This document shows positions 8,741 to 58,853 of a DNA stretch of 64,000 bases, piece after piece. The stretch is from Candidatus Omnitrophota bacterium (GTDB lineage: Bacteria; Omnitrophota; Gorgyraeia; JABMRN01; RBG-13-46-9): the NCBI GenBank assembly GCA_043817155.1, contig JBDRHE010000085.1, positions 1,464 to 65,463 of the forward strand, in the 5' to 3' direction. How positions within the stretch are numbered: the stretch's first letter is position 1; each line of letters opens with the position of its first letter. The position numbers and the translations under genes are program-made. The notes beneath the pieces are model-generated. The model ran no database searches. It was not told the origin of the DNA and saw only the letters and a program-made list of their open reading frames with translations.

Positions 8741-9628
8741 ATGCTTGAACTGATAGATCAATTCTTAGATTATCTCTCCATCGAAAGGGGCTTGAGTGCC
8801 AATACCATAAAGAGTTACAGGCAGGATCTTATAAAGTATGTCGAATATCTTAAGCGGCATGGCGCAAGGAACGTGGGAGATGTTAAAAGAAACCAGATTA
8901 CGAAGTTTCTATTCTTCTTGAAGGATAGCGGGCTTGCGGCGAATTCCATTTCAAGAAATCTCGTTGCAATAAAGGTATTTTACAGATTTCTGGTATCCGA
9001 GAGGATCGTTAAGGAAGATATCGCAAGCATATTGGAATCCCCGCGTCTGATGAAGAATCTTCCGGATGTGCTGACCGTAGATGAAGTGACGCGGATGATC
9101 GAGGCTTCGGATGTGCGTAACACTTTGGGCGCAAGGGACAGGGCCGCGATGGAGCTTATATATGCTACAGGTATGAGGGTTTCGGAGGTGGTTGAGCTCA
9201 CTCAGGAGAGCCCGAATCTCGATATGGGATTTATAAGATGCGTCGGAAAAGGTTCAAAAGAGCGCATAATCCCTGTAGGTAAGGCAGCCCGAAGCGCTTT
9301 AGAGAGGTATCTCAGAAGATCCAGGCCTAAATTATGCGGGCGCCTTCAAAGTAAGCATCTCTTCCTATCAAGGCTGGGAAAGAAGATCTCACGGCAATCT
9401 TTCTGGAAGATGATAAAGAAATATGCAAAGGCGGCCGGAATAAATAAACAGATATCCCCGCATGTCCTTCGGCACTCATTCGCAACGCACTTGCTTGAAA
9501 AAGGAGCAGATCTAAGAAGCGTCCAGGAGATGCTCGGCCATGCCGACATCGCCACAACTCAAATATATACACATATAAATAAGTCCAGGCTGAAGGGAAT
9601 ACATAAGAAATTTCACCCGAGAGGGTAA
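8741..9628 (+). CDS. site-specific tyrosine recombinase, XerC/XerD family
   Basis: 295 aa; N-terminal SAM-like domain (DQFLDYLSIERGLSANTIKSYRQDL); catalytic R..H..R..Y region (LRHSFATHLLEKGADLRSVQEMLGHADIATTQIYTHI). Confidence 0.85.
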   Translation: MLELIDQFLDYLSIERGLSANTIKSYRQDLIKYVEYLKRHGARNVGDVKRNQITKFLFFLKDSGLAANSISRNLVAIKVFYRFLVSERIVKEDIASILESPRLMKNLPDVLTVDEVTRMIEASDVRNTLGARDRAAMELIYATGMRVSEVVELTQESPNLDMGFIRCVGKGSKERIIPVGKAARSALERYLRRSRPKLCGRLQSKHLFLSRLGKKISRQSFWKMIKKYAKAAGINKQISPHVLRHSFATHLLEKGADLRSVQEMLGHADIATTQIYTHINKSRLKGIHKKFHPRG

Positions 9629-9885: not shown

Positions 9886-10037
9886 CGGTCATGACAAAGT
9901 TTCGAATGTCAAAACGATATTTCCGTCGATATAGTACAACTCATTTGGAAACGAATGATTTGGTTTGTATTTTTGGTTTTTAGTTTTTGGTCTTTGCTTT
10001 TTTGCAAAAATTATTTAAACTTAGAATTTCAAAAAAG

Positions 10038-12680
10038 ATGGATTTAATAGTTACTCATAATAACGCCGATTTCGATGCATTCAGTTCGCTGGTAGCGGCG
10101 CAAAGGCTCTATCCTGGGGCAAGGCTTCTCATGCCCGGTTCGCAGGAGAGGGCAGTAAGGGAGTTCTTGTCTCTAGTCGGGGACAAGATAAAGATAGAAT
10201 CGGAGAGGACATGTGATCTAAGAGATGTAAAACGCCTCGTACTCGTTGACACAAGGCATAGATCCAGGATAGGCGTGGCGGCTACGATCGTAGATAAGCC
10301 ATCCGTGGAAGTGCATATATACGACCACCACCCGAGAAACCAGAGCGATATTAAGGGGGACAAAGATGTTTTCCGGGAGATAGGGGCTACCGTCTCGATG
10401 CTAATCGATATATTGCGCAGCAAGAACAAGGCGAAGTTTACGGCACTTGAGGCTACAATAATGTTGCTTGGAATATATGAAGAGACCGGTTCCCTGACCT
10501 ATAGAACGACCACACGGTCGGATGTTGATGCCGTTAGCTTTCTGCTTTCCAGGGGCGCGAATCTACAGGCTGTATCGTCGTATCTAAATAGAAAGTTAAC
10601 TGAAGAGGAGCTTACCTTCCTTACCACTCTTATAAGCGGGACGAAGGTGCTTGCTATAAACGGCGTAAATGTCGCCATAGCGCATGGGGAGATAAAGCGT
10701 TTTTTAGGTGAACTTGGCACGATCGTGAGGAAGCTACAGGATGTCGAGAATTTTCCGGTGCTCTTCGTACTCTTCAAAACAGGCAATAAACTACGTATCA
10801 TTGCGCGCAGTCGATTGAAAGAGGTTGACGTTAACAGGATCCTTAAGCAATTCGGCGGTGGTGGGCACAGGAGCGCGGCAAGTGCCAAGATCGAAGGGAT
10901 GGATGCCGAATCCTTCACAGAGCGGCTGGTCACTATCCTTAAGTCCAGCATTAAGACAAGGAGTTTAGCAAGAGATATAATGAGCTCTCCGGTTAAGACC
11001 ATATCCTCTGACAGGAAGATAATTGACGCAAGTGAGATGTTGGGTAGACTCAAGATGAAGGGGATGCCGGTTATGGAGAACAAGAGCCTCGTAGGTGTGA
11101 TCACAACTAGCGATATAAATAAGGCGTTAAAACACCACTATGAGCATGCTCCGGTTAAAGGTTATATGACGCGTACAGTATTAACGATAAGACCAAATAC
11201 GCCTCTACACCAAATACAGAAGACAATGTTCGAAGAGGGTGTAGGCAGACTTCCGGTAGTTCGGGGTAAAACACTCGTTGGGATAGTTACCCGCACAGAT
11301 GTTCTAAAGAGTGTCCACAGGGATATATTTAAAGGAGCGAGGAGGCGCAAGACACGGGGTGATAGGATGAGCTTATCGCGCGAGATGAAGAGGGTCCTGC
11401 CAAAAAAGATGCTTAACATCCTGCAGTCTATAGGCAGGTGCGCTAATAACATTGGGTACAGGGTCTTTGTTGTAGGTGGTTTTGTGAGAGATATGCTCCT
11501 GGGAGCGAAGAATTTCGATATCGATGTGGTTGTGGAAGGTGATGCTATTCTATTTGGCAGAAAGATAGCAGATCTATTCAATGGAAGTTTTGTCGCTTTT
11601 AAAAAGTTTGGGACGTCCAAGGTCGTTATGGATTGGCCAAGCGGGATGTGCAAAACAAGCGGCTCGGGCCCAAAATTTAAAATGGACTTTGCAACTGCGA
11701 GGAAGGAATCATACGAGAAACCGGCGGCGCTGCCTACGGTGGAGTTCAGCCTGCTTAAAGATGATATGCATAGGCGCGATTTTACAATAAACGCCATGGC
11801 AATCAGTCTCAATAAAGGCAGTTTTGGTCAGCTGATAGATTTCTTTGGCGGCGAAAGGGATCTGGAGAATGGTGTTATAAGGGTTCTTCATGACGGAAGT
11901 TTCATCGATGATCCCACGCGCATATTCAGGGCTGTGAGATTTGAGCAGAGGTTCGGGTTTCCGATAGATAGGTATACCGGCTTGCTAATTAAGAATGCGG
12001 TAAAAGAAGAGATGTTCAGCAAAACGCAAAACCATAGGATCAGCGATGAACTTGTATTGATTTTAAGGGAAGACAGCCCGGCCAAGGCAATAAAGCGCAT
12101 GAAAGAGCTCCATGAGTTAAGATTTATCCACAAGAAATTGAAGTTCACAAGATCTACGGGGCGATTATTCAGTAAGGTAAAAAGTTCATTTTATGCGTAT
12201 GATAAGAGCCCGTTTAAAAAGAGACACGTCGATTTATGGCTTATGTACTTGATGGCACTACTGCAGAATATGAGCCTGAAGGATACAAGAGAGATATGTG
12301 ATAAATTTGCTTTCAGGAGGAGCGACAAGCTGAGGCTTTTATCAGCCAAGAAGAATTGCAAAAAGATACGAAGGCTTCTCGCCGCTAAAAGAGTGCCGCC
12401 GGCAAAGGTTTATGGTTTGCTCGAACCCCTCTCTCTGGAGGAGATATTGCTGGTAAGAGCGCAAACAGATAGCAGGTTATTGCATTTGAGGATAAGGGAG
12501 TATTTCGAAAAGCATTGTGGTGTCGCGATAAGGATGGGTGGCGAAGATCTAAAACGTATGGGCCTTGAGCCCGGTCCAATGTACAAAGAGATCCTGACAA
12601 AGGTATTGCATCATAAGGTTGATGGAAATCTCAGAACGAAACGCGAAGAGCTGCAATACGCTAAGAGACTTATAAAATGA
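10038..12680 (+). CDS. multidomain DHH-DHHA1 / tandem CBS / CCA-adding tRNA nucleotidyltransferase (PolyA polymerase family) fusion protein
   Basis: Start probably ATG 10038 (MDLIVTHNNADFDAF); the ORF track extends to 9987. DHH (YDHHPRN) and DHHA1 (GGGGH) motifs, two CBS domains, then nucleotidyltransferase head GGFVRDMLLG..DIDVVV. Confidence 0.85.
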   Translation: MDLIVTHNNADFDAFSSLVAAQRLYPGARLLMPGSQERAVREFLSLVGDKIKIESERTCDLRDVKRLVLVDTRHRSRIGVAATIVDKPSVEVHIYDHHPRNQSDIKGDKDVFREIGATVSMLIDILRSKNKAKFTALEATIMLLGIYEETGSLTYRTTTRSDVDAVSFLLSRGANLQAVSSYLNRKLTEEELTFLTTLISGTKVLAINGVNVAIAHGEIKRFLGELGTIVRKLQDVENFPVLFVLFKTGNKLRIIARSRLKEVDVNRILKQFGGGGHRSAASAKIEGMDAESFTERLVTILKSSIKTRSLARDIMSSPVKTISSDRKIIDASEMLGRLKMKGMPVMENKSLVGVITTSDINKALKHHYEHAPVKGYMTRTVLTIRPNTPLHQIQKTMFEEGVGRLPVVRGKTLVGIVTRTDVLKSVHRDIFKGARRRKTRGDRMSLSREMKRVLPKKMLNILQSIGRCANNIGYRVFVVGGFVRDMLLGAKNFDIDVVVEGDAILFGRKIADLFNGSFVAFKKFGTSKVVMDWPSGMCKTSGSGPKFKMDFATARKESYEKPAALPTVEFSLLKDDMHRRDFTINAMAISLNKGSFGQLIDFFGGERDLENGVIRVLHDGSFIDDPTRIFRAVRFEQRFGFPIDRYTGLLIKNAVKEEMFSKTQNHRISDELVLILREDSPAKAIKRMKELHELRFIHKKLKFTRSTGRLFSKVKSSFYAYDKSPFKKRHVDLWLMYLMALLQNMSLKDTREICDKFAFRRSDKLRLLSAKKNCKKIRRLLAAKRVPPAKVYGLLEPLSLEEILLVRAQTDSRLLHLRIREYFEKHCGVAIRMGGEDLKRMGLEPGPMYKEILTKVLHHKVDGNLRTKREELQYAKRLIK

Positions 12681-19082: not shown

Positions 19083-21272
19083 TTGAAGATATCAAGATTA
19101 AATGAGATAAAATTAGTCCTCTTATTGGCTATAGCGCTTGTCATCTTCATAAGCCTGCTTTCTTTCAGTAAAGACGATATACCGGGTCTTACCTCTAACC
19201 CGAATATCACCAAGAACAACATAATCGGTTTCGTCGGAGCCTACCTGTCATGGGCGATCATCTTTCTGACGGGGCGCGGGGGATACGTAATACCCTTCTT
19301 CATAGCGATTTGGGGGGCCCTGTCACTTTTTGGTGGCAAGGTCCACAAGTTCTACCTGAGGGTTTTCGGTGCGATCTTTTTGATACTCGCCGTAAGTTCC
19401 ATATGTAGCCTTGTCGGTCCGGGTGACACCGCTTTCAGGTTCGAGCGGGGCGGAATAATAGGATTGGCATTTTCCGATTTCCTCATAACGTATCTCGGAA
19501 CCGCGGGTACATTCATATCCATAAGTGTTCTCCTGCTTCTCTCTCTCTATGTGACGACTGACCTTCTTCTCTTTCCTTTGGTAGGCTGGATCGCCGGGTT
19601 ATTTATAGCTATTATTAGGGTGGCAAGATCTATTCCGGTCAACCTTTCAAGAAGGGGCAGGCCGAAGGCTCTTCGGGAGAATCAGAGGCCGGTCAAGCCC
19701 GCGATAAACAGAGCCCTTGCGAAGATTAGAACGAAAGAAGTTTCAAATGAAAGGATCACAAAAGCTGTTGTAGCGACCTGGCCATCAGCTGAACAGGCCG
19801 GAAAAAAAGAGACATCTTTTGTTAAGGAGCCGAAGACCGAAGAGAAGAGAGTAAGTGATACAGCCCTCCCGTACGAGCTTCCCCCGCTTAGCCTTCTGAC
19901 CTCTCCTCCTCCCGTCGAAGAGAGGCTCATTAAAGACAACTTAGACGAGAGCTCAAGGATACTTGAAGAGACTTTGAGGGATTTTGGCATAGAGACGAAG
20001 GTTGTGAAGGTAAGTCGTGGACCCGTAATAACCAGATACGAACTTGAACCGGCCAGCGGTGTAAAGATCCACAAAATAACATCTCTTAGCGATAATATTG
20101 CGCTTGCAATGAAAGCGATGAGCATAAGGATCGTGGCTCCGATCCCGGGCAAGGGCACTATAGGCGTGGAAGTGCCTAATTCTAAAGGCGCATTAGTCTA
20201 TTTAAAAGAGACATTAGAATCGAAAGAGTATAAAGAGGCTAAGTCTAAATTAAAGCTGGTATTGGGTAAAGATATCGCAGGAAAACCTATGATGGCGGAT
20301 CTGGGCGATATGCCGCATCTTTTGATAGCGGGAGCCACCGGCTCAGGCAAGACCGTTTGCGTAAATGGCATAATTGCCACGCTTCTTTTTAATGCAAAGC
20401 CTTCGGAGCTGAAGTTTCTTATGGTGGACCCCAAGAGAGTGGAACTGGCAGCGTTTAATGATTTGCCGCACCTATTAGCGCCTGTCATAACTGATTCGAA
20501 GAAAGTTTCGCATGCGCTGAACTGGGCTATTGGCGAGATGGAGAGAAGGTACGAGACATTTGCGCAGTTAGGCGTAAGGAATATCGAGGGGTACAACAAG
20601 AGGAGCGAAAGCGAAGATCTCGCTGACCTTCCTTTCATAGTGATAATCATTGATGAGCTTGCGGACCTGATGCTCATTTCGCAGGAGGAAGTGGAGAATA
20701 TGATAACAAGGCTTGCCCAACTCTCCAGGGCTGTTGGAATACACATGGTCATTGCAACGCAGAGGCCGTCCGTCGATGTTATTACCGGCGTCATAAAGGC
20801 CAACTTCCCCTCCAGAATATCATTTAAAGTTGCGTCTAAGGTGGATTCGAGGACAGTTATAGACATGAATGGCGCAGAGAAGCTTCTGGGAAGGGGCGAT
20901 ATGCTATTTATGGAACCGGGTAACCCTAAACCGATCCGAGGGCAAGCCAGCCTCGTGGGCGATGATGAAATTGCAAGGATCACCGCTTTTATAAAAGCTC
21001 AAAGGAGCGCGGATTACGAGGAAGGGATCGTTAAAGTCGAAGATAAACCCAAGTACAAGAACTTCGAAAGAGATGACATTTACGGGGAAGCGGTAAAGAT
21101 GGTCATGCAGACCAGGCAGGCTTCCGTATCGATGTTGCAGAGAAGGCTTGGCGTTGGATATACAAGAGCCGCTCGGCTTATTGACATGATGGAGGATGAG
21201 GGAGTGGTCGGTCCTTATCAGGGGTCAAAACCCAGAGAGATACTTGTAGATACCGTTGACGAGAAAGTATGA
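19083..21272 (+). CDS. ftsK: DNA translocase FtsK/SpoIIIE (TTG start)
   Basis: 729 aa; N-terminal TM segments, proline/charged linker, motor domain with Walker A GATGSGKT, C-terminal gamma winged helix (RRLGVGYTRAARLID). Confidence 0.9.
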   Translation: MKISRLNEIKLVLLLAIALVIFISLLSFSKDDIPGLTSNPNITKNNIIGFVGAYLSWAIIFLTGRGGYVIPFFIAIWGALSLFGGKVHKFYLRVFGAIFLILAVSSICSLVGPGDTAFRFERGGIIGLAFSDFLITYLGTAGTFISISVLLLLSLYVTTDLLLFPLVGWIAGLFIAIIRVARSIPVNLSRRGRPKALRENQRPVKPAINRALAKIRTKEVSNERITKAVVATWPSAEQAGKKETSFVKEPKTEEKRVSDTALPYELPPLSLLTSPPPVEERLIKDNLDESSRILEETLRDFGIETKVVKVSRGPVITRYELEPASGVKIHKITSLSDNIALAMKAMSIRIVAPIPGKGTIGVEVPNSKGALVYLKETLESKEYKEAKSKLKLVLGKDIAGKPMMADLGDMPHLLIAGATGSGKTVCVNGIIATLLFNAKPSELKFLMVDPKRVELAAFNDLPHLLAPVITDSKKVSHALNWAIGEMERRYETFAQLGVRNIEGYNKRSESEDLADLPFIVIIIDELADLMLISQEEVENMITRLAQLSRAVGIHMVIATQRPSVDVITGVIKANFPSRISFKVASKVDSRTVIDMNGAEKLLGRGDMLFMEPGNPKPIRGQASLVGDDEIARITAFIKAQRSADYEEGIVKVEDKPKYKNFERDDIYGEAVKMVMQTRQASVSMLQRRLGVGYTRAARLIDMMEDEGVVGPYQGSKPREILVDTVDEKV

Positions 21273-37834: not shown

Positions 37835-38944
37835 ATGATTAGATCGAGGATGGTCCGCTTTACATTGGCAACGGTTGTTTTTTTGACCGTGCTCCTGGTG
37901 CTTGTCCTGCTCTACCTTAAGATCTACGGAAAGAATGTTCTGGAGAAAGTGTTGAGTAGCATGCTCGGGACAAAGGTTGAATTCACGGGCCTGACAATTA
38001 ATCCGGACAGATACGCGCTTAAATTTAAAGGGGTTAAACTGCCTGAGAAGATCGATTTCAAGGACCGGTCTATATTCAGCGCCAAGAACTTCACGGTCTT
38101 CCTTGATAAGAGAGAACTCAAAGAAAAGAGGAAAATAGCGATCGATGAGATATTGATCGAAGAGGGCGTCTTTACTGTTGAGCGCAATAGGGCAGGGGTC
38201 CTTAATATATCCGGTTTGCCCGGTAAAAAACGCTCGATCCAGACCGGCGTAGCGTATGCAAACGAGCCAGAGCCTACAGGTCTTTACAGTTTTGCCAGCA
38301 GCATACGAAAGCTTATTATAAAGGATTCTGTAATAGAATTCAAGGACCACTTTATTTATGATGTGCCGTTTATAGTCACCTGTGAAGACTTCAGCGCAGA
38401 TATAACATCTATGCGTAAGCCATTAAAGAAGACCGGTTATATCCCTATTTTTTGCGAATTGAGCTGTACCATCCCAAGCGATCGATATGGAAAAGGGGAG
38501 ATCGCGATAGACACGGATCTGTCAGTCTATAAGTACATGTACGATGCGGATATGACTGTAACGCTCAGGCGCGTGGACCTCATGCGTTTTTTCCCGTACA
38601 TTGAGAAATATACACCGTTCTCTATCAGTGATGGCCTTGCCAGCTCTGACACTAAATTTGAATTGCGGAATAACAGGATAAATTCCATTACCAATGTGGT
38701 CTTTCACAGGTTGCGCTTAGTATCCGAACCGGGCAGCCGCGACGGTCAATTCCTGCAAACCTCTGTAAGCAGGCTCCTGCCTTATTTGACATCGAGGCAG
38801 GGTGAAATACTCTTCGACTTCGTCATAAGGGGTCCGGCCAATCAGCCCGAGGTATCCCTTGGGCCACAAGTACGTAGCGCGATGAGCTCCGCAGTTATGG
38901 GCGAGGTAGGTAGCGCCCTCCAGGGCTTACAGGGCCTTCAGTAA
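37835..38944 (+). CDS. membrane-anchored hypothetical protein (AsmA/DUF748-like topology)
   Basis: 369 aa; N-terminal TM (LATVVFLTVLLVLVLLYL), then a large periplasmic-type domain; preferred over the overlapping antisense ORF 37610..38350 on composition grounds. Confidence 0.45.
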   Translation: MIRSRMVRFTLATVVFLTVLLVLVLLYLKIYGKNVLEKVLSSMLGTKVEFTGLTINPDRYALKFKGVKLPEKIDFKDRSIFSAKNFTVFLDKRELKEKRKIAIDEILIEEGVFTVERNRAGVLNISGLPGKKRSIQTGVAYANEPEPTGLYSFASSIRKLIIKDSVIEFKDHFIYDVPFIVTCEDFSADITSMRKPLKKTGYIPIFCELSCTIPSDRYGKGEIAIDTDLSVYKYMYDADMTVTLRRVDLMRFFPYIEKYTPFSISDGLASSDTKFELRNNRINSITNVVFHRLRLVSEPGSRDGQFLQTSVSRLLPYLTSRQGEILFDFVIRGPANQPEVSLGPQVRSAMSSAVMGEVGSALQGLQGLQ

Positions 38945-39169
38945 CTTACTTTCCACCTATCCGTGTAATCAAAACTATATAAACTCCGTATAATCTGTGC
39001 ATTATTTCGTCTCGAGTTAACTATGAAAAAGTTACCTCATAATCTATTGTTATTTTTTCCTATTAAAGGCATACTTATATTAGGAGGCATGAATAAGTAT
39101 ATACAGTTATTAAGAGCGTAAAGAAGTTATTTCTTCGGACTGCATTGAAACTGAGAGAAGGTGAGACGC

Positions 39170-39547
39170 ATGAACCCAATGAGTTATCAACCGGCGAATA
39201 CAAATGTAGAAAAGAGGGCATACAAACGTATACGTAGGGGATATATGTTCCAATATAGAATAAACCCGCAGTCAACCTGGGACGCTGTTGTTATGCATGA
39301 TCTCAGTGCGGGGGGCATGGCATTCAACTGTGGCAAGACCATTGAGAACGACGCTATCCTGGATGTCAAGATAAACTTCCCATCATCAAACCGACCGATA
39401 GAATGCGCAGGCCGTGTCGTGCGCTCAAGGAAAGATGCATACTTACCGATGTACCATATAGCGCTCTCCTTCATGGATATAGCTGACGACGCGAAGAACC
39501 ATATTAATAAACTCGCTGAAGAGTTTCATGCAAAGGAAAGACTATAA
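39170..39547 (+). CDS. PilZ-domain (c-di-GMP-binding) protein
   Basis: KRAYKRIRR (RxxxR) and DLSAGGMAF (DxSxxG); ATG 39170 with AGGTGAG SD. Confidence 0.55.
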   Translation: MNPMSYQPANTNVEKRAYKRIRRGYMFQYRINPQSTWDAVVMHDLSAGGMAFNCGKTIENDAILDVKINFPSSNRPIECAGRVVRSRKDAYLPMYHIALSFMDIADDAKNHINKLAEEFHAKERL

Positions 39548-43928: not shown

Positions 43929-44759
43929 ATGAAGACAGTAGTTAAGCCGCTTATAATAGCGGTGATTTGTTTGGGTATAGTCGTTCCTTATGAATCATGC
44001 CTTGCTGACATGCGTAAAAATACGCTAAAAACGAAGGAGATAAAGGATATTCCGAGCAGATCAGTAGAACAGCTTGAAAGACTGCTTACGAGCAAAGCGG
44101 AGGTTGTATCAAAGAAAAACGCCGTTTCCAAAGAGATTCAGAACGAAAAGGAGTCCAGGGAAGAGTCTTCCAAAAAGGAACTATTAAGCAAATCCCCAAA
44201 AGGCATAAATTTAGTAGTAGCCCCAAACACGAACAAAGAAAAACTAGCCCTTAAGGAACTGTTTTTTGGTAAACAACCTAAGGATGAGGTGCCTAACATA
44301 AGTAAGGATCTGTTGTTTAAAGACACTATTTCGGCCGATGACGGGTCCGTTTCTTCCTTGACAGGAGACCTTATTAAACCGCTTACCTATGAAGGCCGGA
44401 AAAAGGCGGATGATCCCGGGTTCTCTGTAGGGGCATATATTAAAAGCGTAGTTGAGATGAAAGAGATACCCCTTGAGAAAAACAAAGACACCATTGCAAA
44501 AGACTTGCCGGTTGAAATGAAGCCCTCTTTACAAAAAAAGAGTCTTATGGATAGCGAGCTTATAATACCCCTCAAAGGAGCTCGCAGATCAAGAAGTAGA
44601 CGCATTCTTAAGGATGAATATAACTACGATAATGAAGCACTGTCCGGGAATGGAAGAGGGCCCATAATGTATCGCCATTATGAGGACCACCCCTACATGA
44701 GACTGAATGGCGCTACAATTTCATACACTATCGAACGGAGAGAAACAAGCGTTAATTAA
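43929..44759 (+). CDS. secreted hypothetical protein
   Basis: 276 aa; signal peptide; K/E-rich; no recognised domain. Last plus-strand gene before the strand switch. Confidence 0.45.
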   Translation: MKTVVKPLIIAVICLGIVVPYESCLADMRKNTLKTKEIKDIPSRSVEQLERLLTSKAEVVSKKNAVSKEIQNEKESREESSKKELLSKSPKGINLVVAPNTNKEKLALKELFFGKQPKDEVPNISKDLLFKDTISADDGSVSSLTGDLIKPLTYEGRKKADDPGFSVGAYIKSVVEMKEIPLEKNKDTIAKDLPVEMKPSLQKKSLMDSELIIPLKGARRSRSRRILKDEYNYDNEALSGNGRGPIMYRHYEDHPYMRLNGATISYTIERRETSVN

Positions 44760-44772
44760 TCGTTGTTTATAA

Positions 44773-44828
44773 GCATAAATAAGCTCCTTAGGACCATCGC
44801 AGTGGCCACCCTAAGGAGCTTATTTATG
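44773..44828 (+). terminator. long perfect hairpin (19-bp stem) just after the 43929 gene; terminator-like
   Basis: CATAAATAAGCTCCTTAGG-N17-CCTAAGGAGCTTATTTATG; the loop contains a GTGGCCAC palindrome; followed by TAG rather than a clean T-run. Confidence 0.5.
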
Positions 44829-44919
44829 TAGAGGACGGCCGAAATCTGGCAGCGAAAACCACACATTTAAGATCTTAGCTCCTGTCAAGTAGGCCTAGAA
44901 ACCGCATGGAAATAGCACT

Positions 44920-44957
44920 GTAACAAATGTTACTTGAGGGCATGTAACATCTGTTAC
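44920..44957. promoter_or_regulatory. pair of 14-bp palindromes GTAACA-N2-TGTTAC, 24 bp centre-to-centre
   Basis: GTAACAAATGTTAC (44920..44933) and GTAACATCTGTTAC (44944..44957), both perfect palindromes; a degenerate pair recurs at 45445..45489. Confidence 0.55.
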
Positions 44958-45371
44958 TCGATGGTTTCATACAACTTCGGGGTTACAAGGCACAGCACTC
45001 GCCATTTCGTGATTCCATATTAGCGTCATTAACGGTCCGAAATAGGTTGATTACCTTAGGTAATGGTAACAGCCGATAGAAGGGAGAAAGGGCTCATAAA
45101 GAGGCCTCCAAGGCCTTAAAATGGCCAATGCCGTAGGCATAAAACAGATTGGTTGCTAATTGAATCGGGATCTAAAAAGTTCTACCTCCCACAATGCTCT
45201 TCATGCGATTATATCGATAAACCTCTATAATAGGTTATCCACAGGGGGAAAGCTTTAAATCGCCCAAAAAGAGCAAATTTCTACACCTTTGTCTATGTTC
45301 TCGCCAGACCAAGTACACCTTTGTTCGACTCCAAAACGCCTACTTATACACATTAGCCCCTCTTATCCCCA

Positions 45372-45399
45372 GCGTCCTATAATATATCTTATGTTAACT
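45372..45399. other. dif: dif-like XerC/XerD chromosome dimer resolution site (28 bp)
   Basis: GCGTCCTATAA-TATATC-TTATGTTAACT. Compare E. coli dif GGTGCGCATAA-TGTATA-TTATGTTAAAT and B. subtilis dif ACTTCCTAGAA-TATATA-TTATGTAAACT (both recalled from memory). The XerD arm matches 10/11. It lies in a 1-kb ORF-free region at a convergent strand-switch point. Confidence 0.65.
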
Positions 45400-45444
45400 A
45401 GGGCCTTAGGGGAGGGGAGGTTAGCATGTGTTCGTAGGGCCTAT

Positions 45445-45489
45445 GTAACAAATGTTGCGTTCGTCTTTATGCCATATAACAAATGTGTC
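45445..45489. promoter_or_regulatory. second, degenerate pair of GTAACA-N2-TGTTAC-like sites just right of dif
   Basis: GTAACAAATGTTGC (45445..45458; 13/14) and ATAACAAATGTGTC (45476..45489; 11/14). Confidence 0.4.
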
Positions 45490-45796
45490 GCGATCCCATA
45501 GTTTTAAGCGCTATTCAACGTTTATGCGTTAAACATATCCTATTAGGACGCACCGCCACTTTACTAAATATCCCCTATTCACTCAAGCCTTCAATAGCGC
45601 GTGATATAGAGGTTTATCTATATGATAGTGCCCCTATATATGTCTATTATTAACTACTTTGGGGTGGGTATTTGCTGCTTCTTTAGAAAGGAAATTCCGG
45701 GCTCGTTTAAATCGCGAGAGGTCTAATAAGCAACTCGGGGTATCGAAATATTACTGAATTCTTAACGGCTTAAGGCGTCTCTAATAAATGCTCTAA

Positions 45797-46447
45797 TCAA
45801 AGTTCGGATTCGATCTCGCGGATCAGGTTATCGACATCCTTTACAATCTGCGCAGGTAGCATTTTGGATATCTTAAGCTCCCTGCTGATGGACTTTAAAG
45901 CGCTCAGGAAGCGCTTAAGAATGGCTTGTTTCTTCTTTTTCCAAGCCTCTTCAGGCTGAAGTTCCTCGCGTTGCTTTATGAGGGCTGTAAGGTCCTTCTT
46001 TACATCCTTTGCGTCTTTCCCTTTTTGAAGAACGTTCTGCTTTATGGTTTCATATTCCTCTTTATCGATATCCTTCTTCTTGCTGGCAAGCCGTAGGGCA
46101 TCGACAGACTCATAAGTAGGCAGAGATGCAGCGGAAACGCCTTCATGGTAACCCTTGTTAAGGTACCTGGGCTCTTCTTTTTCAAGAAAATAGTATGACC
46201 TTAGCAACTTGAGAGCGGTCTGCTTCCGTATGCCTATCTCCTTTATGGCATATGCATCGAAAGTACCATATCCCCAGTCCCTGTACATCTTATCCTTCCA
46301 CACGGTGTGAAGAGCCTGTCCCAGATCTACCCAGGATGTTTTAAACGATTTGGCATTTTCCAGGATCTGATATCTAAGGGTCCCTTTGGCCACGTTTTCC
46401 ATCTTCTGTTCTAAGTTTTCTATGGTCTTAGTCTTAATAACACTCAT
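45797..46447 (-). CDS. hypothetical protein with predicted HTH; first minus-strand gene after the strand switch
   Basis: 216 aa; WKDKMYRDWGYGTFDAYAIKEIGIRKQTALKLLRSY helix-turn-helix-like segment; K/E-rich coiled-coil C-terminus; family not recognised. Confidence 0.5.
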   Translation of the reverse strand: MSVIKTKTIENLEQKMENVAKGTLRYQILENAKSFKTSWVDLGQALHTVWKDKMYRDWGYGTFDAYAIKEIGIRKQTALKLLRSYYFLEKEEPRYLNKGYHEGVSAASLPTYESVDALRLASKKKDIDKEEYETIKQNVLQKGKDAKDVKKDLTALIKQREELQPEEAWKKKKQAILKRFLSALKSISRELKISKMLPAQIVKDVDNLIREIESEL

Positions 46448-46983
46448 TTATCACCGCCTTTTTGAAAGCCTTATTTTTAGGGATAATATACTACATTGCA
46501 CTGAAAGAGTCAAATGAAAAAGATTCGAAGCATAATACATAAATTAGCACACCTGCCTGCCGGCCCACCTGTTTTTGTGCCCCCCCTCCCCCAGTTTGGA
46601 CGAAATGGGCAAAAACCGAGTTATACCTTGACATTTTAGCTATAATATGCTAATATTACAGCGTCTAAGGCGAATGGAACAAAGGATCTATTGGCGATTT
46701 TGTGGAATACAAGAACTGTTTGAACACGCACTGTTACTCACCAGTCAGCATCATACCATTCATGAGATCCCTAAACACATATTATAGGCCTGTTATATAT
46801 AACGTTATTTAAGTAGGTCATTGATTGAGGGTGCCCGCATGTAGGCGCCATTTCGTGTAATAGTGATAAAAAAGGAGGGTCAAATAGGTTAAGGAATAAG
46901 ATCGGTTTTTGTGTTTTAGGTGAACATTTTGTTCCGCATAAAGAATTATTTGATGCGGAAAACTAAGAAGGAGAATGAGAGAA

Positions 46984-47312
46984 TGGAACAAGTCAGTAAA
47001 TTGTACGTAGGCAACCTCGAATATTCAACAACAGAAGAAGACATTAAGGCTCACTTTGAGGAAAAAGGAATAAAGACAAAATCAGTAACCCTTATAAAGG
47101 ATAAATATACGGGTCGCGCAAAAGGTTTCGGCTTTGTAGAAGTGGAAACGGAATCGGAGATCGAAAAAGCGATCGAAGCACTGGACGGCCAGGACCTTAA
47201 GGGTCGCAAGCTTACAGTCAACAAGGCAAAGCCACCGAGAGAGCGATCAGACAATCCCAGAGGCGGCGGCGGAGGCGGATTTGGAGGCGGAAGAGGAGGC
47301 TCCAGGTTCTAA
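46984..47312 (+). CDS. RRM-type RNA-binding protein with glycine-rich C-terminus
   Basis: RNP2 LYVGNL and RNP1 KGFGFVEV motifs; RGGGGGGFGGGRGGS tail; ATG 46984 with AAGGAG SD. The 5' UTR has a CCGCAT-N13-ATGCGG stem-loop. Confidence 0.8.
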
Positions 47313-50430: not shown

Positions 50431-53256
50431 TTATGAAATAACCTTTAAGAACATATCCACGATCTGCGGGTCATACTTTGTACCGGACTCTTCCTTCAAT
50501 ATCTCAATGGCCCTCTCCTTGCTAAATGCTTTGCGATAGGGACGATCCGATGTTAACGCCTGGTAGGCATCGGCAATTGCTATTATCCTGGCGCCGATCG
50601 GTATATCTTCACCCTTTAGACCATTCGGATAGCCTTTCCCGTCCCACCTTTCATGGTGATCCAGGATAAGCGGAATTACGTCATGCAGATACCGAATAGG
50701 GCGTATGATATCCACGCCGATCTGCGGATGTCTCTTTATCTCTTCAAACTCTTCCGCTGTAAGGCTCGACCTCTTATTTAGGACGCTCTGTCTTATGCCT
50801 ACCTTTCCCAGATCATGCAATATGGAGGCCTTCTTGATCCGATCCACATCCTCCGTTGACAAGCGCATTATTTCGGCAAGCTCTGTAGCGTAGCGTACGG
50901 TTCTTTCTACATGGTCTCCCGTTTCAGGGTCGCTAACCTCTATGGTTCTGGCAAACGCGAAGATAGCTTCCATAAGGTTCTGGTTGGATTTCGTATTTAA
51001 TTTTTCTATCTTATTTTTCAAAAAGTCGGTATTGACATTTTCGGATGTTTCCGTTGTCGCCGCCTTCCTCTCCTTCGCATCTACAGATGTAAATACGTTA
51101 TTGCCCCCAAATTCCTTCGATTTACTAAGGATCTTATCAGCAAATGTAACAAGGTCCATAGCCTTAGAGATCGGATCCTCCGGGTATGAGCAAACAGCAA
51201 TGCTTATCTTAAGTTTAACACTGTATTCCCTATTCCCGAAATTGTATAAGTGTAGTGCATCCAGGAGCTTGCGGGCCAGGATCTTCTCACCGTTAAGATC
51301 TGTCCTCGGGGATATAACAAGAAACTCTTCCCCCCCGGAGCGAATGACAATATCATTACGCCTGACCAAGTTCTTTAGCTGGGATGCAAATTGTTTTAAT
51401 GCAAGATCCCCGAACTGGTGTCCATAAACGTCGTTTATCGATTTGAAATAATCCAGATCCACCATCAAGATCGATAAGGGGTAACCGTATCTCTTGGCGC
51501 GGTAGAACTCAGTTTCTATGACCGTTGTAAGATATCTGTAGTTAAATAGTCCTGTATGCGAATCTATTAAGACCAGCTGCTCGAGCTTCTTGTTAGACTT
51601 TAAGAGGTTCCTATTGGAGATCGCAAGTTTATTCTTCGTCTCTGTAAGTTCGCTTATATCCATAACAGAGATAAGGATCCGCGACCAGTCCTTCTCGTAC
51701 CCCGGCATTACACTGGCCTTAAGGTTGACTTTAAGCTTCTTGCCGCCTAAAGTCTTAGTGTAACAGTCGAATGCAAATCTTGTCTTGCCGTTCGCCAGGC
51801 TTATAAGCTCCTCCCTGAAAGCGTGGTACGATTCTTTAGTAAATATACGTGTTAATCCTCCCCAAAATTCCTTCTTGTCCTTTGCCTTGTAAAGATCCAG
51901 CGTTGCCTTGTTTACCTCTAATATCTTAACCATGGTCGCGCAGTCCGCGACATCTTCAGGATGTTCCTTAAAGTACTTTTCGAAATCGTCAACGCCACTA
52001 TCGCTTAATTTCGTAATGAACTTCTTGACATTTGAAAGGTCCTCCTCCCACAAGGAGACCGGAGAATTCTCAAATAGCGCCCTGAAACGCTTCTCACTTG
52101 TAAACAACCTCTCCTGCGCTTTTTTCCGTTCATATATATTACGAGCGGAGGCACAGTTGAATTCGTTTCCCTGTAGCTCCAGGTAATTCAATGATATCTC
52201 TACAGGAAATGACTCTCCTTCTTTAGTGCGATAAGTGGACTCGATGGTAAAAGACTTCTTGCGCTTGAGTTCCTTCCAGTGGCCCGGCCATACTTTCTTT
52301 GGGAATTCGGTATCGATATCGTGCACAGTCATGGAAAGCAGCTCGTCCGGAGTATAGCCTAAAGCATTGCACGCATTCTCATTTACGTATTTGAAGCGTC
52401 CATTCCGATCGATCAGAAATATCGACTCGGCAGCTTTGTCAACCAGATACTTTGAAAGCCTAAGCTCCCCTTCAGCGCTCTTACGCTCAGTAATATCCCT
52501 GAGGATAACTTGCATGACGGTCCTTCCACCGATATCAGCTACCGACGATGATATTTGGACGGGTTTAATCGTTCGGGTTTTTGTTATTATCTCAGCCTCA
52601 ACATCGCTTACCCCACCATTTTTCACCAGCTTTTTAAATAACTTGAGCTGCATATCTCTTGTTTTTGGAGGAAAGAGGACCGATTGATGCTTCCCTATTA
52701 TATGCCTCCGATTGCGTTCGAAAAGCTTTTCGGCTGCCAGGTTGCAATTGACCAGAGAGTGCGTACTGCCATCAACCCAGAAGATCGCATCCTTGGCATT
52801 TTCAAATATTGAGCGAAAACCCTCTTCACTCTTCAGCAGAGACTCCTCTGCGATCCTCCGATCGCTTATGTCTTCGCCTGAGCTAAGCGTGCCGATGATC
52901 ACATTCTTATCATCTCTTAAGACCTCGTTATGCCATGAGATCAATCTAAGCTTGCCCTTCTTCGCTACAACGGGATTAACGTAATACTCAAGAGCCTTGG
53001 TCTTTCCCGCCATCAAACCATTGAACGCCGCCTTTACCTGGTTCTTTATGCTTGCCGGAATGAAGTTGGCAAACCAGCCCTTATTAATGATCTCCTCTTT
53101 CCTGCGTCCCAGGATCTCGCAGCCCTTCCTATTAATGAGGGTAACATTGCCTTTATTGTTGAGAACGACTATCATCACACCGGCAACATCCAGATATTTC
53201 TGCGCCATATCCCTCTCACTATACAGTTGCGTGATGTCTAATATTTTATTATTCAT
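50431..53256 (-). CDS. cytoplasmic multi-PAS / GGDEF / HD-GYP signalling protein (c-di-GMP synthesis and hydrolysis domains)
   Basis: 941 aa; ~4 PAS/PAC modules; GGDEF domain with RxxD I-site and GGEEF (RRNDIVIRSGGEEF); C-terminal HD-GYP (ILHDLGK ... HHERWDGKGYP). Confidence 0.85.
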   Translation of the reverse strand: MNNKILDITQLYSERDMAQKYLDVAGVMIVVLNNKGNVTLINRKGCEILGRRKEEIINKGWFANFIPASIKNQVKAAFNGLMAGKTKALEYYVNPVVAKKGKLRLISWHNEVLRDDKNVIIGTLSSGEDISDRRIAEESLLKSEEGFRSIFENAKDAIFWVDGSTHSLVNCNLAAEKLFERNRRHIIGKHQSVLFPPKTRDMQLKLFKKLVKNGGVSDVEAEIITKTRTIKPVQISSSVADIGGRTVMQVILRDITERKSAEGELRLSKYLVDKAAESIFLIDRNGRFKYVNENACNALGYTPDELLSMTVHDIDTEFPKKVWPGHWKELKRKKSFTIESTYRTKEGESFPVEISLNYLELQGNEFNCASARNIYERKKAQERLFTSEKRFRALFENSPVSLWEEDLSNVKKFITKLSDSGVDDFEKYFKEHPEDVADCATMVKILEVNKATLDLYKAKDKKEFWGGLTRIFTKESYHAFREELISLANGKTRFAFDCYTKTLGGKKLKVNLKASVMPGYEKDWSRILISVMDISELTETKNKLAISNRNLLKSNKKLEQLVLIDSHTGLFNYRYLTTVIETEFYRAKRYGYPLSILMVDLDYFKSINDVYGHQFGDLALKQFASQLKNLVRRNDIVIRSGGEEFLVISPRTDLNGEKILARKLLDALHLYNFGNREYSVKLKISIAVCSYPEDPISKAMDLVTFADKILSKSKEFGGNNVFTSVDAKERKAATTETSENVNTDFLKNKIEKLNTKSNQNLMEAIFAFARTIEVSDPETGDHVERTVRYATELAEIMRLSTEDVDRIKKASILHDLGKVGIRQSVLNKRSSLTAEEFEEIKRHPQIGVDIIRPIRYLHDVIPLILDHHERWDGKGYPNGLKGEDIPIGARIIAIADAYQALTSDRPYRKAFSKERAIEILKEESGTKYDPQIVDMFLKVIS

Positions 53257-57761: not shown

Positions 57762-58853
57762 TTATATTCGAAAGACGGAATCGAAATCGCCGTATGGGTT
57801 CTTTTCCTTTTCCGTATTTTCAGGATCCCAGAGCCAAAGTCCATCAGCCACAAACTTATATCTGTACCGGCCGGGCAAGAGGTATATGGACTTCTCCCAA
57901 TTGCCTTCTTCACTCCTTATAAGCTTGCTCGCAACATCGACCTTCCAATCATTAAAATCCCCGACAACATAGACGTCATTGGCCTTCGGGGCGAACAATT
58001 TAAAGATCTTCTCTTTTGAATAGACATTACCGTAAGCCCCATGCATTATCTTGCGCATCTCCTGATAGACGCTCTTAGCCGATTCCTCACTGTCGCGCAC
58101 AAGGAGCTCTTCTGCCATTGCCAGGTAATCATGAGCTGCCCTCGACTCAGCATACTCGGTAAATATCGACTGTGTCTTCTCCTGCGCTTGCCGCACGGCT
58201 GTATCGAAAGAGATCATCGCGGAAAAAAGTTTCTCTTTAAATATATACTTGATCTTAGCAAGCATCTTTATGGAAAAATCGGAATACTCATCGTACATAA
58301 CTACCAGGCCCCTTAAGTTGGGGGCGTGATGTAGCTTTATCTTGATGAGCTCGACCATGCTGATCAATTTCCCGACACCCATTATAGCGAATGCGCTCGT
58401 CTCTACGGGTATTATGATCTCGCCGGCTGCCCTGAGAGCATTAAAGGTCAAGAATCCCAGGTTAGGAGGGCAGTCGATAACAATATAGTTGTAGTCAGGG
58501 GCGCATCGCATAATAGCCCGTGAAAGTATTAAGAGACCGTCCTGCCTCTCTTTCAGATCCTGCTCTATGGTGCTGAGTATAATATGAGAAGGGACCAGAT
58601 CCAATCCCCTCTCCAGGTTTATGGATATATCGTCGATCTTCTTTATCTTCTCCGGATCGTTCGTAAATAATGTGACTATGGACTTGAATGGGTCGACCTT
58701 TAGAACCCCAAGCCCTATCGTGGCGTGCGATTGTGGATCGAGGTCTATGAGGAGAACGTTCTTGCCTTTCTTTGCCAGGGCAGCAGCGAGGCATGTAGCA
58801 GTGGTGGTCTTTCCACAACCACCTTTTTGATTAGCTATTGCGAATATCTTCAT
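57762..58853 (-). CDS. ParA/MinD-type P-loop ATPase fused to a C-terminal CBM48 / AMPK-beta-type glycogen-binding domain
   Basis: 363 aa; deviant Walker A KGGCGKTT, ParA-like core to ~aa 255, then VYVVGDFNDWKVDVASKLIRSEEGNWEKSIYLLPGRYRYKFVADGLWLWDPEN matching the V.V.G.FN.W...L...G.W...L.PG.Y.YKF.VDG.W..DP pattern of AMPK-beta GBD/CBM48. Confidence 0.75.
   Translation of the reverse strand: MKIFAIANQKGGCGKTTTATCLAAALAKKGKNVLLIDLDPQSHATIGLGVLKVDPFKSIVTLFTNDPEKIKKIDDISINLERGLDLVPSHIILSTIEQDLKERQDGLLILSRAIMRCAPDYNYIVIDCPPNLGFLTFNALRAAGEIIIPVETSAFAIMGVGKLISMVELIKIKLHHAPNLRGLVVMYDEYSDFSIKMLAKIKYIFKEKLFSAMISFDTAVRQAQEKTQSIFTEYAESRAAHDYLAMAEELLVRDSEESAKSVYQEMRKIMHGAYGNVYSKEKIFKLFAPKANDVYVVGDFNDWKVDVASKLIRSEEGNWEKSIYLLPGRYRYKFVADGLWLWDPENTEKEKNPYGDFDSVFRI

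Follow-up and report, generated by a model that had tools for sequence, protein, structure and literature searches.

A probable chromosomal dif site where the replication arms meet in a Candidatus Omnitrophota contig

This study examined a 64-kb stretch of DNA (the window) out of a 74.8-kb contig from a Candidatus Omnitrophota metagenome-assembled genome (MAG). The 28-bp sequence at positions 45372-45399 is very probably the chromosomal dif of this bacterium, situated in the gap where two oppositely replicated arms, and the co-oriented genes they carry, meet. The original prediction of a replication terminus with its dimer-resolution site was supported by the flip of GC skew and gene orientation within the gap, by the absence of any other dif-like 28-mer in the window, by the presence of genes for XerD and for an FtsK with a gamma domain, and by conservation of the site across the phylum. 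A dif at the terminus is to be expected in any bacterium that carries XerCD, and this one is ordinary in that sense. A literature search turned up no account of dif in the Omnitrophota, and the computational prediction of dif sites across 16 phyla by Kono et al. 2011 (PMC3025954) did not cover them.

The site was read directly, and is made up as follows.

45372..45399, plus strand: dif site, 11 + 6 + 11 bp
45372-45382: XerC-type arm, GCGTCCTATAA
45383-45388: central region, TATATC, 6 bp
45389-45399: XerD-type arm, TTATGTTAACT

The letters of the 28-mer, GCGTCCTATAA-TATATC-TTATGTTAACT, were exactly those predicted, and the arms show an inner dyad symmetry (ATAA ... TTAT) around the 6-bp central region. 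The likeness claimed for the XerD arm also held, with 10/11 matches to the dif of E. coli and 10/11 to that of B. subtilis, the reference sequences of both having been checked in PMC3025954. Over its whole length the site was identical to B. subtilis dif at 23/28 positions and to E. coli dif at 20/28. It was the best match in the window to the former, and for the latter it shared first place with a 28-mer at 2463, which also scored 20/28. When the window was searched with the site itself, the next-best 28-mer in the 64 kb reached only 19/28.

Two well-studied systems are instructive for comparison. The Firmicutes-type dif of B. subtilis (ACTTCCTAGAATATATATTATGTAAACT) has the same 11 + 6 + 11 layout, an XerC arm with 8/11 matches besides the similar XerD arm, and a position at the skew switch, with XerD and FtsK/SpoIIIE-type translocases present; the recombinases of that species, CodV and RipX, correspond to XerC and XerD. 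It differs in host phylum, and in a central region ending in A, where that of the window ends in C. The E. coli system of dif, XerC/XerD and FtsK/KOPS resembles the window in architecture, XerD arm, FtsK gamma domain and position at the junction of the arms, but the XerC arms match at only 6/11 positions, and neither Tus/Ter nor MatP/matS is known or was seen in the window.

The strongest support for this assignment came from comparison with other genomes. A degenerate core of the site (20 fixed bases and one two-fold position) was scanned against 185,579 species genomes (species representatives), or about 1.2e12 positions, for which we estimate ~0.5 chance matches. At least 120 loci were recovered, with one site per locus. 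The last of the six central bases, which adjoins the XerD arm, proved typical of the phylum, being C or G in 31 of the 33 loci named as Omnitrophota and in 6 of the 78 loci from other taxa; the exact core of the window, TATATC, was present in 23 of the Omnitrophota-named loci. The commonest Omnitrophota site, ACTTCCTATAATATATCTTATGTTAACT, departs from that of the window only at positions 1 and 3 of the XerC arm, and the consensus for the phylum is ACTTCCTATAA-TATAT[C/G]-TTATGTTAACT. The outer XerC-arm bases are ACT in most members and GCG in the window, so that the window variant begins GCGT. This prefix was private to the window, save for an unrelated 1.2-kb metagenome contig, the one match when the JGI metagenomes were searched with the exact 28-mer. 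In most Omnitrophota loci a plus-strand gene lies immediately to the left of the site and a minus-strand gene immediately to the right; where both flanks of dif extended for at least 1.2 kb, as they did in 26 Omnitrophota-type loci, long open reading frames (ORFs) converged on it in 23 and diverged from it in none. The recurrence of the site, its central region ending in C or G, and the convergence of genes upon it together mark the 28-mer of the window as very probably the conserved dif of the phylum.

For Candidatus Omnitrophota, a PVC-related phylum without cultured members, these data provide a dif consensus at the level of sequence. They extend the standard XerD/FtsK-gamma machinery of dimer resolution to the Omnitrophota and nothing more, an extension that was expected. 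In practice, the 28-mer should offer a landmark, presumably one per genome, that marks the terminus in fragmented MAGs and allows contigs to be ordered and oriented; it may also anchor growth-rate estimates from read coverage, and flag elements that exploit Xer recombination.

Within the window, the predicted strand switch was recovered by a greedy ORF call, with plus-strand genes ending at 44759 and minus-strand genes beginning at 45797.

43929..44759, plus strand: the 276-aa gene that closes the left arm, without a family match
44760..45796, no strand: convergent intergenic gap, junction of the replication arms
45797..46447, minus strand: the 216-aa gene that closes the right arm, of a conserved family found throughout the Omnitrophota, without a Pfam match

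By the same ORF call, 47 plus-strand genes (38.2 kb) lay to the left of 44760, against four small minus-strand ORFs (2.0 kb), and 17 minus-strand genes (15.1 kb) lay to the right of 45797, against two plus-strand ORFs, one of them an RRM gene at 46920-47312. The GC skew of the 64 kb also changed sign near 45 kb, as had been anticipated, from +0.131 to the left of dif to -0.105 to the right, and cumulative G-C is highest at 45169, inside the gap and ~200 bp from dif. Intergenic DNA taken by itself behaved similarly (+0.086 to the left, -0.104 to the right). Because nearly all genes are co-oriented, replication skew is not cleanly separable from transcription-linked bias: the few counter-oriented ORFs in the window have a skew that follows their own strand, and they are too few to divide the two contributions, also at third codon positions.

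This confounding of skew with gene orientation, together with the use of MAG data and a view limited to 64 kb, leaves some room for reading the convergence as a local boundary between two co-directional blocks, or as a metagenome mis-join, in which case the 28-mer would resemble dif by chance or without its function, or would serve as an accessory Xer site. Such an explanation is highly improbable, given that loci across the phylum each carry one copy of this site, with genes that converge on it in 23 of 26 and diverge in none. Signs of a mis-join were sought in composition, and tetranucleotide usage agreed between the arms, with correlations of 0.92-0.95 between the right arm and segments of the left, compared with 0.88-0.93 among the left segments themselves; genes typical of the Omnitrophota were present on both arms. 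The conserved repeat is, moreover, only 28 bp long, and the window copy carries its private GCGT prefix. Assemblers usually finish with k-mers longer than 28 bp. The objection that the contig might be a plasmid or a chimera, raised beforehand as a possible refutation, fared no better, since the composition gave no chimera signal and the window is chromosomal in content, encoding LigA, PNPase, RimO, FabF, PurL, and a PcrA/UvrD-family helicase, the last of which scored below equivalog cut-offs.

The proteins that would act at the site are partly encoded on the left arm, where both genes named in the original prediction could be assigned more closely.

8741..9628, plus strand: xerD, an XerD equivalog scoring 387.9 bits where the TIGR02225 cut-off is 329.6
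19083..21272, plus strand: ftsK, with 4TM, alpha, motor and gamma domains (PF13491, PF17854, PF01580, PF09397)

What had been described as a XerC/D-family recombinase is thus XerD, and it is the sole tyrosine recombinase of the 64-kb window, in which no second one, xerC included, was found; a gene for XerC would have to be sited elsewhere. The FtsK carries all four domains, including the gamma domain, which in this family recognises DNA and activates XerD. Xer genes adjoin dif in loci of Bacilli, Mollicutes and Muribaculaceae, and none were seen beside it in the Omnitrophota loci examined. On the left arm the KOPS-type sequence GGGNAGGG pointed toward dif in a ratio of 8:1, and on the right arm the ratio was 1:1, a distribution confounded by purine-rich coding strands; purine-rich words in general were skewed toward dif, as such coding strands would produce. 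By analogy with characterised systems, homologous recombination would give rise to a chromosome dimer, and FtsK anchored at the septum would pump DNA to bring both copies of dif together. The gamma domain of FtsK would then activate XerD to exchange the first pair of strands across the 6-bp central region, and XerC would finish the reaction, converting the dimer to monomers. We infer binding and cleavage at the 28-mer, their dependence on FtsK, and the fusion of replication forks near the site.

An entirely different function for the gap, that of a replication origin, was suggested by DnaA-box-like sequences close to dif.

45235..45371, plus strand: three 9-mers resembling DnaA boxes, all on the same strand, TTATCCACA at 45235, TTATACACA at 45344, and TTATCCCCA at 45363, the last abutting dif

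The first is a perfect DnaA box and the other two are near-matches, all within 137 bp. Across the window, boxes with no more than one mismatch numbered 20, compared with 14.4 +/- 3.2 expected, so they are not enriched overall, and near dif they form only a small group. An origin would show diverging genes and a skew passing from negative to positive; here genes converge on the gap and the skew passes from positive to negative. Neither DnaA nor DnaN was detected among the 26 window proteins scanned, and the element of the gap that is conserved is dif. Both the convergence of the genes and the direction of the skew change contradict an oriC, and we attach next to no probability to it.

If the 28-mer is the dif of this chromosome, the remainder of the gap calls for separate comment. 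At 1037 bp, it is the largest gap in the window at an ORF cut-off of 80 aa, and ~3.4 times as long as the corresponding gaps of other Omnitrophota, which have a median of 301 bp (range 88-1027). The claim that it contained no ORF of 60 aa or more did not stand, as a TTG-initiated ORF of 70 aa runs from 45289 to 45501 on the plus strand and spans dif; it is most likely spurious. Comparison with related loci indicated that the 28-mer alone is conserved within the gap, and the ~1 kb outside it is lineage-specific non-coding DNA that forms no part of the conserved dif function. The 216-aa protein of the right arm has 1239 homologues, one of them (ABID09_07765 of a Candidatus Omnitrophota MAG) 100% identical, and in its closest relatives (65-69% identity) the gene is not at the terminus. 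Exact-protein look-ups of three window proteins, made for synteny, found no contig.

Two kinds of repeated sequence were found around dif in this lineage-specific DNA.

44919..44958, no strand: left pair of GTAAC-N4-GTTAC palindromes, copies at 44919-44933 and 44943-44957, 24 bp from start to start
45444..45489, no strand: right pair of GTAAC-N4-GTTAC palindromes, copies at 45444-45458 (one mismatch) and 45475-45489 (three mismatches), 31 bp from start to start
45208..45229, plus strand: left arm of a 22-nt inverted repeat, 20/22 complementary to 45605-45626, bracketing dif
45605..45626, minus strand: right arm of the 22-nt inverted repeat

Both left palindromes are perfect, and the four copies fall inside 570 bp, two on either side of dif, with no comparable copy elsewhere in the 64 kb. 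The inverted repeat, for which zero matches were expected by chance, encloses a 419-bp segment containing dif, and no further copy was found in the window. Its score of 16 exceeded the maximum of 13 among the window's own 30 shuffles; of 32 other loci, only L067 (14) and L014 (13) surpassed their own shuffle maxima (11 and 12, respectively), and both remained below the window. Neither feature is shared: among 120 dif-bearing loci of other genomes, 42 of them Omnitrophota-type, the palindrome was absent except for one chance-level match, and the inverted repeat was not found next to dif.

One way to account for the extra ~700 bp of the gap is that they are the debris of a mobile element, either an IMEX-type element integrated at dif or a MITE, with the palindromes as its operators and the 22-nt repeats as its termini. 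The size and lineage-specific content of the gap, and the enclosure of a segment by inverted repeats, would fit such an origin, and three phage-like IMG/VR contigs carrying an Omnitrophota-type dif exist, which makes Xer-exploiting elements plausible in the phylum. There is precedent in the CTX-phi and TLC elements of Vibrio and in the gonococcal genetic island, which likewise bring lineage-specific DNA to lie beside dif, much as the viral contigs carry the dif of this phylum. Integration at dif is accompanied in those cases by a flanking second dif-like site and element genes, and neither was found here. No second dif or hybrid site was detected in the window; the best candidate, at 45628-45655, matched at 18/28, which is chance level and is equalled at four other places in the window, and it was rejected as a pseudo-dif. 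No element genes were found in the gap, which is also unlike the three viral contigs outside the 28-mer, and unlike plasmids and phages. The inverted repeat, too, lacks another copy in the window, and it encloses dif without abutting it. Altogether, a mobile origin for this DNA seems very unlikely.

The same repeats could instead be sites for a protein that arrests replication forks (Ter-like), or that organises or marks the terminus (matS-like), a proposal that would add to the dif assignment and not replace it. The arrangement of the palindromes, two and two about dif and nowhere else in the 64 kb, and an inverted repeat that is unique in the window and above chance, are in keeping with such a role. 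Nor are the palindromes explained by a promoter, since both neighbouring genes end in the gap and there is none for them to serve. On the right, the inner copy is better than the outer one, so that a fork arriving from the left would encounter the strong-then-weak order that is the polarity rule of B. subtilis-type terminators (PMC10331603). On the left no polarity is evident, because the palindromes are symmetric and both copies are perfect. The fork traps known so far occur only in a few groups related to the Enterobacterales and in some Bacillus (PMC10331603). As in Tus-Ter, and in RTP-Ter of B. subtilis, repeated sequences that look like protein-binding sites lie in tandem pairs on either side of the terminus. 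Those traps differ from the window in possessing a terminator protein, no homologue of which was found (a scan of 26 window proteins gave no Tus, RTP or MatP-like family), and the sites of the window are not conserved in relatives; the likeness is one of resemblance only. With both motifs missing from the other dif loci, there is no conservation to argue for function, and the proposal is distinctly improbable. The palindrome may resemble the RTP B-site and matS. That the palindromes and the 22-nt repeat are bound by a terminus-specific protein, and so represent a third, independently evolved system of fork trapping or terminus marking, in a candidate phylum without a known one, is very improbable.

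A further structure lies at the left edge of the gap.

44774..44828, plus strand: hairpin with a perfect 19-bp stem and a 17-nt loop, starting 15 nt past the stop codon of the left gene

Folded as RNA it is strongly stable (-41 kcal/mol, z -6.0), and judging from sequence it probably stops transcription or stabilises the RNA; it has no T-run, and no canonical terminator was scored. No Rfam family reached its gathering score in the gap, and the one sub-threshold match there merely reflects the 19-bp stem. Two other candidate structures were set aside. An inverted stretch resembling the XerC arm, at ~45537-45554, gave less than 16/28 ungapped and was otherwise inspected by eye, and a hairpin between the C-rich left and G-rich right flanks of dif was no better than shuffles (DNA z -0.9; duplex z -1.1). 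As a group, the Omnitrophota loci showed a weak tendency toward such a duplex of the flanks (19% compared with 3% with z below -2).

The 28-mer at 45372-45399 reads GCGTCCTATAATATATCTTATGTTAACT, exactly as in the original prediction. It matched the reference dif of B. subtilis at 23/28 positions and that of E. coli at 20/28 (both reference sequences agree with Kono et al. 2011, PMC3025954), and the predicted score of 10/11 was obtained for its XerD arm against each of them. It was the best match in the window to either reference, the E. coli score being tied with an intragenic 28-mer at 2463 (20/28), while the next-best 28-mer of the window resembled the site itself at ≤19/28 positions; the XerD arm together with the central region occurred only once. 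The site has the architecture, sequence similarity, conservation, and local skew position of a dif, and the window encodes an FtsK gamma domain. By sequence, the site belongs to the XerCD dif family, nearest to the Firmicutes type. This agrees with the results of Kono et al. 2011 (PMC3025954), in which the Firmicutes profile was the top scorer in Chlamydiae and among those predicting dif in Verrucomicrobia. In full-text literature searches, no account of an Omnitrophota dif turned up.

The predicted convergence of transcription on this region was confirmed by ORF calls, as ORFs of at least 100 aa are + strand as far as 44759 and - strand from 45797 onward, a few small genes being the exceptions, besides shadow ORFs. 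A greedy call without overlaps gave 47 + genes (38.2 kb) versus four small - ORFs (2.0 kb) left of the gap, and 17 - genes (15.1 kb) versus two + ORFs right of it, one of which is an RRM-domain gene (46920-47312). All 2-kb windows had a positive GC skew in the left part and a negative one in the right (overall, +0.131 and -0.105), and the skew also flipped in intergenic DNA alone, from +0.086 (5.1 kb) to -0.104 (2.6 kb). The cumulative G-C maximum fell at 45169, 200 bp from the site, and so provides, within the window, the inflection anticipated at ~45 kb. Both the orientation of the genes and the sign of the skew rule out a replication origin. With a cut-off of 80 aa, no ORF-free stretch of the window is longer than this 1037-bp gap, but the claim that it contains no ORF of 60 aa or more did not hold: a 70-aa ORF with a TTG start (45289-45501), without support as a gene, spans the site and part of the gap.

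The decisive part of the evidence came from comparison across genomes. A scan of 185,579 species (one genome per species) with the degenerate pattern CCTATAATRTATNTTATGTTAA, for which ~0.5 chance matches were expected by our own estimate (20 fixed bases and one two-fold position, ~1.2e12 positions), recovered at least 120 loci, with a single site in each. The 120 listed comprised 33 Omnitrophota-named and nine Planctomycetes-type loci, the remainder being mostly Bacilli, Mollicutes, and Bacteroidota. Among these listed matches, the sixth central base, unconstrained in the pattern, was C or G in 31/33 Omnitrophota-named loci versus 6/78 others; 23 of the 33 carried TATATC, while the other taxa, save those six, had TATATA or TGTATA. 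These counts make the TATATC of the window the form typical of Omnitrophota. The commonest Omnitrophota site among the matches listed was ACTTCCTATAATATATCTTATGTTAACT, from which that of the window differs only at outer XerC-arm positions 1 and 3; ACGT variants were also present. Where at least 1.2 kb was available on each flank (26 Omnitrophota-type loci), long ORFs were convergent in 23, co-directional in 3, and divergent in none, and GC skew changed from + to - across the site in 18. Typical neighbors were a + gene to the left and a - gene to the right, with an ORF-free gap of median 301 bp (88-1027), and similarity of the window gap to the loci listed did not extend past the 28-30 bp that make up the site. 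A chromosomal dif located where two replication arms meet would be expected to show this pattern. Together, the site match, the local skew flip, and the phylum-wide convergent conservation support a terminus with its dimer-resolution site; the feature is a textbook dif, and the original prediction is upheld in both observation and interpretation.

The window is chromosomal, since it encodes LigA, PNPase, RimO, FabF, PurL, tRNA-Pro, and a PcrA/UvrD-family helicase (the last scoring below equivalog cut-offs). The XerC/D-family recombinase and ftsK reported in it were both verified. The former (8741-9628), the only tyrosine recombinase found in the window, passed the XerD equivalog model (387.9 bits, cut-off 329.6) and failed that of XerC (316.6, cut-off 335.15), and all of the 4TM, alpha, motor, and gamma domains are present in FtsK (19083-21272). 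Dimer resolution at dif by XerC/XerD and FtsK is established in E. coli and B. subtilis. By analogy, the left arm of the 28-mer would be occupied by XerC and the right by XerD; at the septum, FtsK would unite both dif copies of a dimer, and its gamma domain would switch on XerD; two pairs of strands would then be exchanged in succession across the 6-bp central region, which would resolve the dimer. Binding, catalysis, and control by FtsK would then be as in those species, and replication forks would probably fuse nearby. Termination has been argued to happen near dif, not at dif (Kono et al. 2011, PMC3025954). KOPS-type polarity was not demonstrable in the window apart from coding-strand purine bias.

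An integrated IMEX was rejected, as a second, hybrid dif was absent from the window, the best candidate (18/28) being at chance level. An assembly chimera was without compositional support (right arm against left segments, 0.92-0.95; left segments among themselves, 0.88-0.93), and Omnitrophota-typical genes lie on both arms.

The gap is ~3.4 times as long as is usual, and what it has in addition is lineage-specific DNA. The gap contains the following elements.

44774-44828: perfect 19-bp hairpin, 15 nt past the stop codon of the left gene (RNA -41 kcal/mol, z -6.0)
44919, 44943; 45444, 45475: GTAAC-N4-GTTAC palindromes, two tandem pairs, one on each side of dif
45208-45229 and 45605-45626: 22-nt inverted repeat enclosing dif (20/22)
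45235-45371, one strand: three DnaA-box-like 9-mers

At ≤3 mismatches, GTAAC-N4-GTTAC gave 7 strand-wise matches where 1.6 were expected, and only one of them, a weak one, lay outside the gap. The 22-nt repeat, with one occurrence in the window, scored above all shuffles. It is very improbable that palindromes and repeat form a terminus-binding or fork-trap-like array; neither was found beside dif in 120 other loci, a set including no close relative. Mobile-element debris is an unlikely source of the extra elements, and comparison of the gap with plasmids, phages, and dif-bearing viral contigs gave no match, nor did it contain any Rfam family. Neutral repeats are a further candidate. The main value of the site lies in a phylum-specific dif consensus and a terminus landmark for MAGs, with added value in the small chance of a terminus-specific function for the flanking repeats. 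A locally stable fold at 45020-45139 (+; z -3.8 versus mononucleotide shuffles), around the GGCC-rich hairpin GAGGCCTCCAAGGCCTT, could act to end - strand transcripts that run into the gap.

In several Omnitrophota (loci L011, L067, L033, L089, L018, and others), the 28-mer is lengthened by a short outer inverted repeat, e.g., TGCTCA-dif-TGAGCA, and by a semi-conserved CATAT(T) a few bases past the XerD arm. Flank complementarity at dif was modestly enriched (z below -2 in 19% of Omnitrophota loci versus 3% of others); the window itself has neither this nor the outer repeat. In one Omnitrophota subset (L067:4531-6269, L018:5893-7693, L044:5881-7681, and L075:1442-3211, dif in + orientation), dif is flanked by two conserved convergent genes, one for a ~110-aa protein starting M..RGRPKK..FSPRG and the other for what looks, by eye, like a Y-family (DinB-type) DNA polymerase.

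Three IMG/VR viral or proviral contigs also contain the core of the Omnitrophota-type dif.

L128 (UViG_3300044580_000221), 31-54: dif core; full canonical 28-mer ACTTCCTATAATATATCTTATGTTAACT
L130 (UViG_3300028622_000016), 10980-11003: dif core; full canonical 28-mer ACTTCCTATAATATATCTTATGTTAACT
L129 (UViG_3300001866_000057), 106-129: dif core; 28-mer starts GCTT

In L128 and L130, the site directly follows a 150-aa HTH (XRE-like) gene and a GC-hairpin-plus-T-run, and a 1884-aa phage-like ORF lies near it. All three may be Xer-exploiting (IMEX-type) phages, or prophages adjoining a host dif.

The right-hand neighbor of the gap encodes a 216-aa protein identical (100%) to ABID09_07765, encoded on a 74,848-bp contig of a Candidatus Omnitrophota MAG, from a family of >1200 Omnitrophota proteins without Pfam or NCBIfam match. 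In relatives (e.g., L121:9184-10654), its gene lies directly downstream of, and co-oriented with, a DUF748 gene; in the window, the pair (45797-46447, -; 37835-38944, +) is split by dif, with each gene on a different strand, a layout suggestive of a rearrangement across the terminus. An 897-aa protein (9987-12680, +) aligns over the full length of the A-adding tRNA nucleotidyltransferase model, with 737 bits against a cut-off of 1440 that it does not reach, and NrnA/DHH-type and CBS-containing models match the N-terminal part of the protein. A ParA/MinD-superfamily ATPase gene (57762-58853, -, 363 aa) lies on the right arm, ~12 kb from dif. Genes of c-di-GMP signaling are abundant near the terminus.

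50431-53256, -: PAS-PAS-GGDEF-HD(GYP) protein, 941 aa
35577-35948, +: PilZ-domain protein
39161-39547, +: PilZ-domain protein
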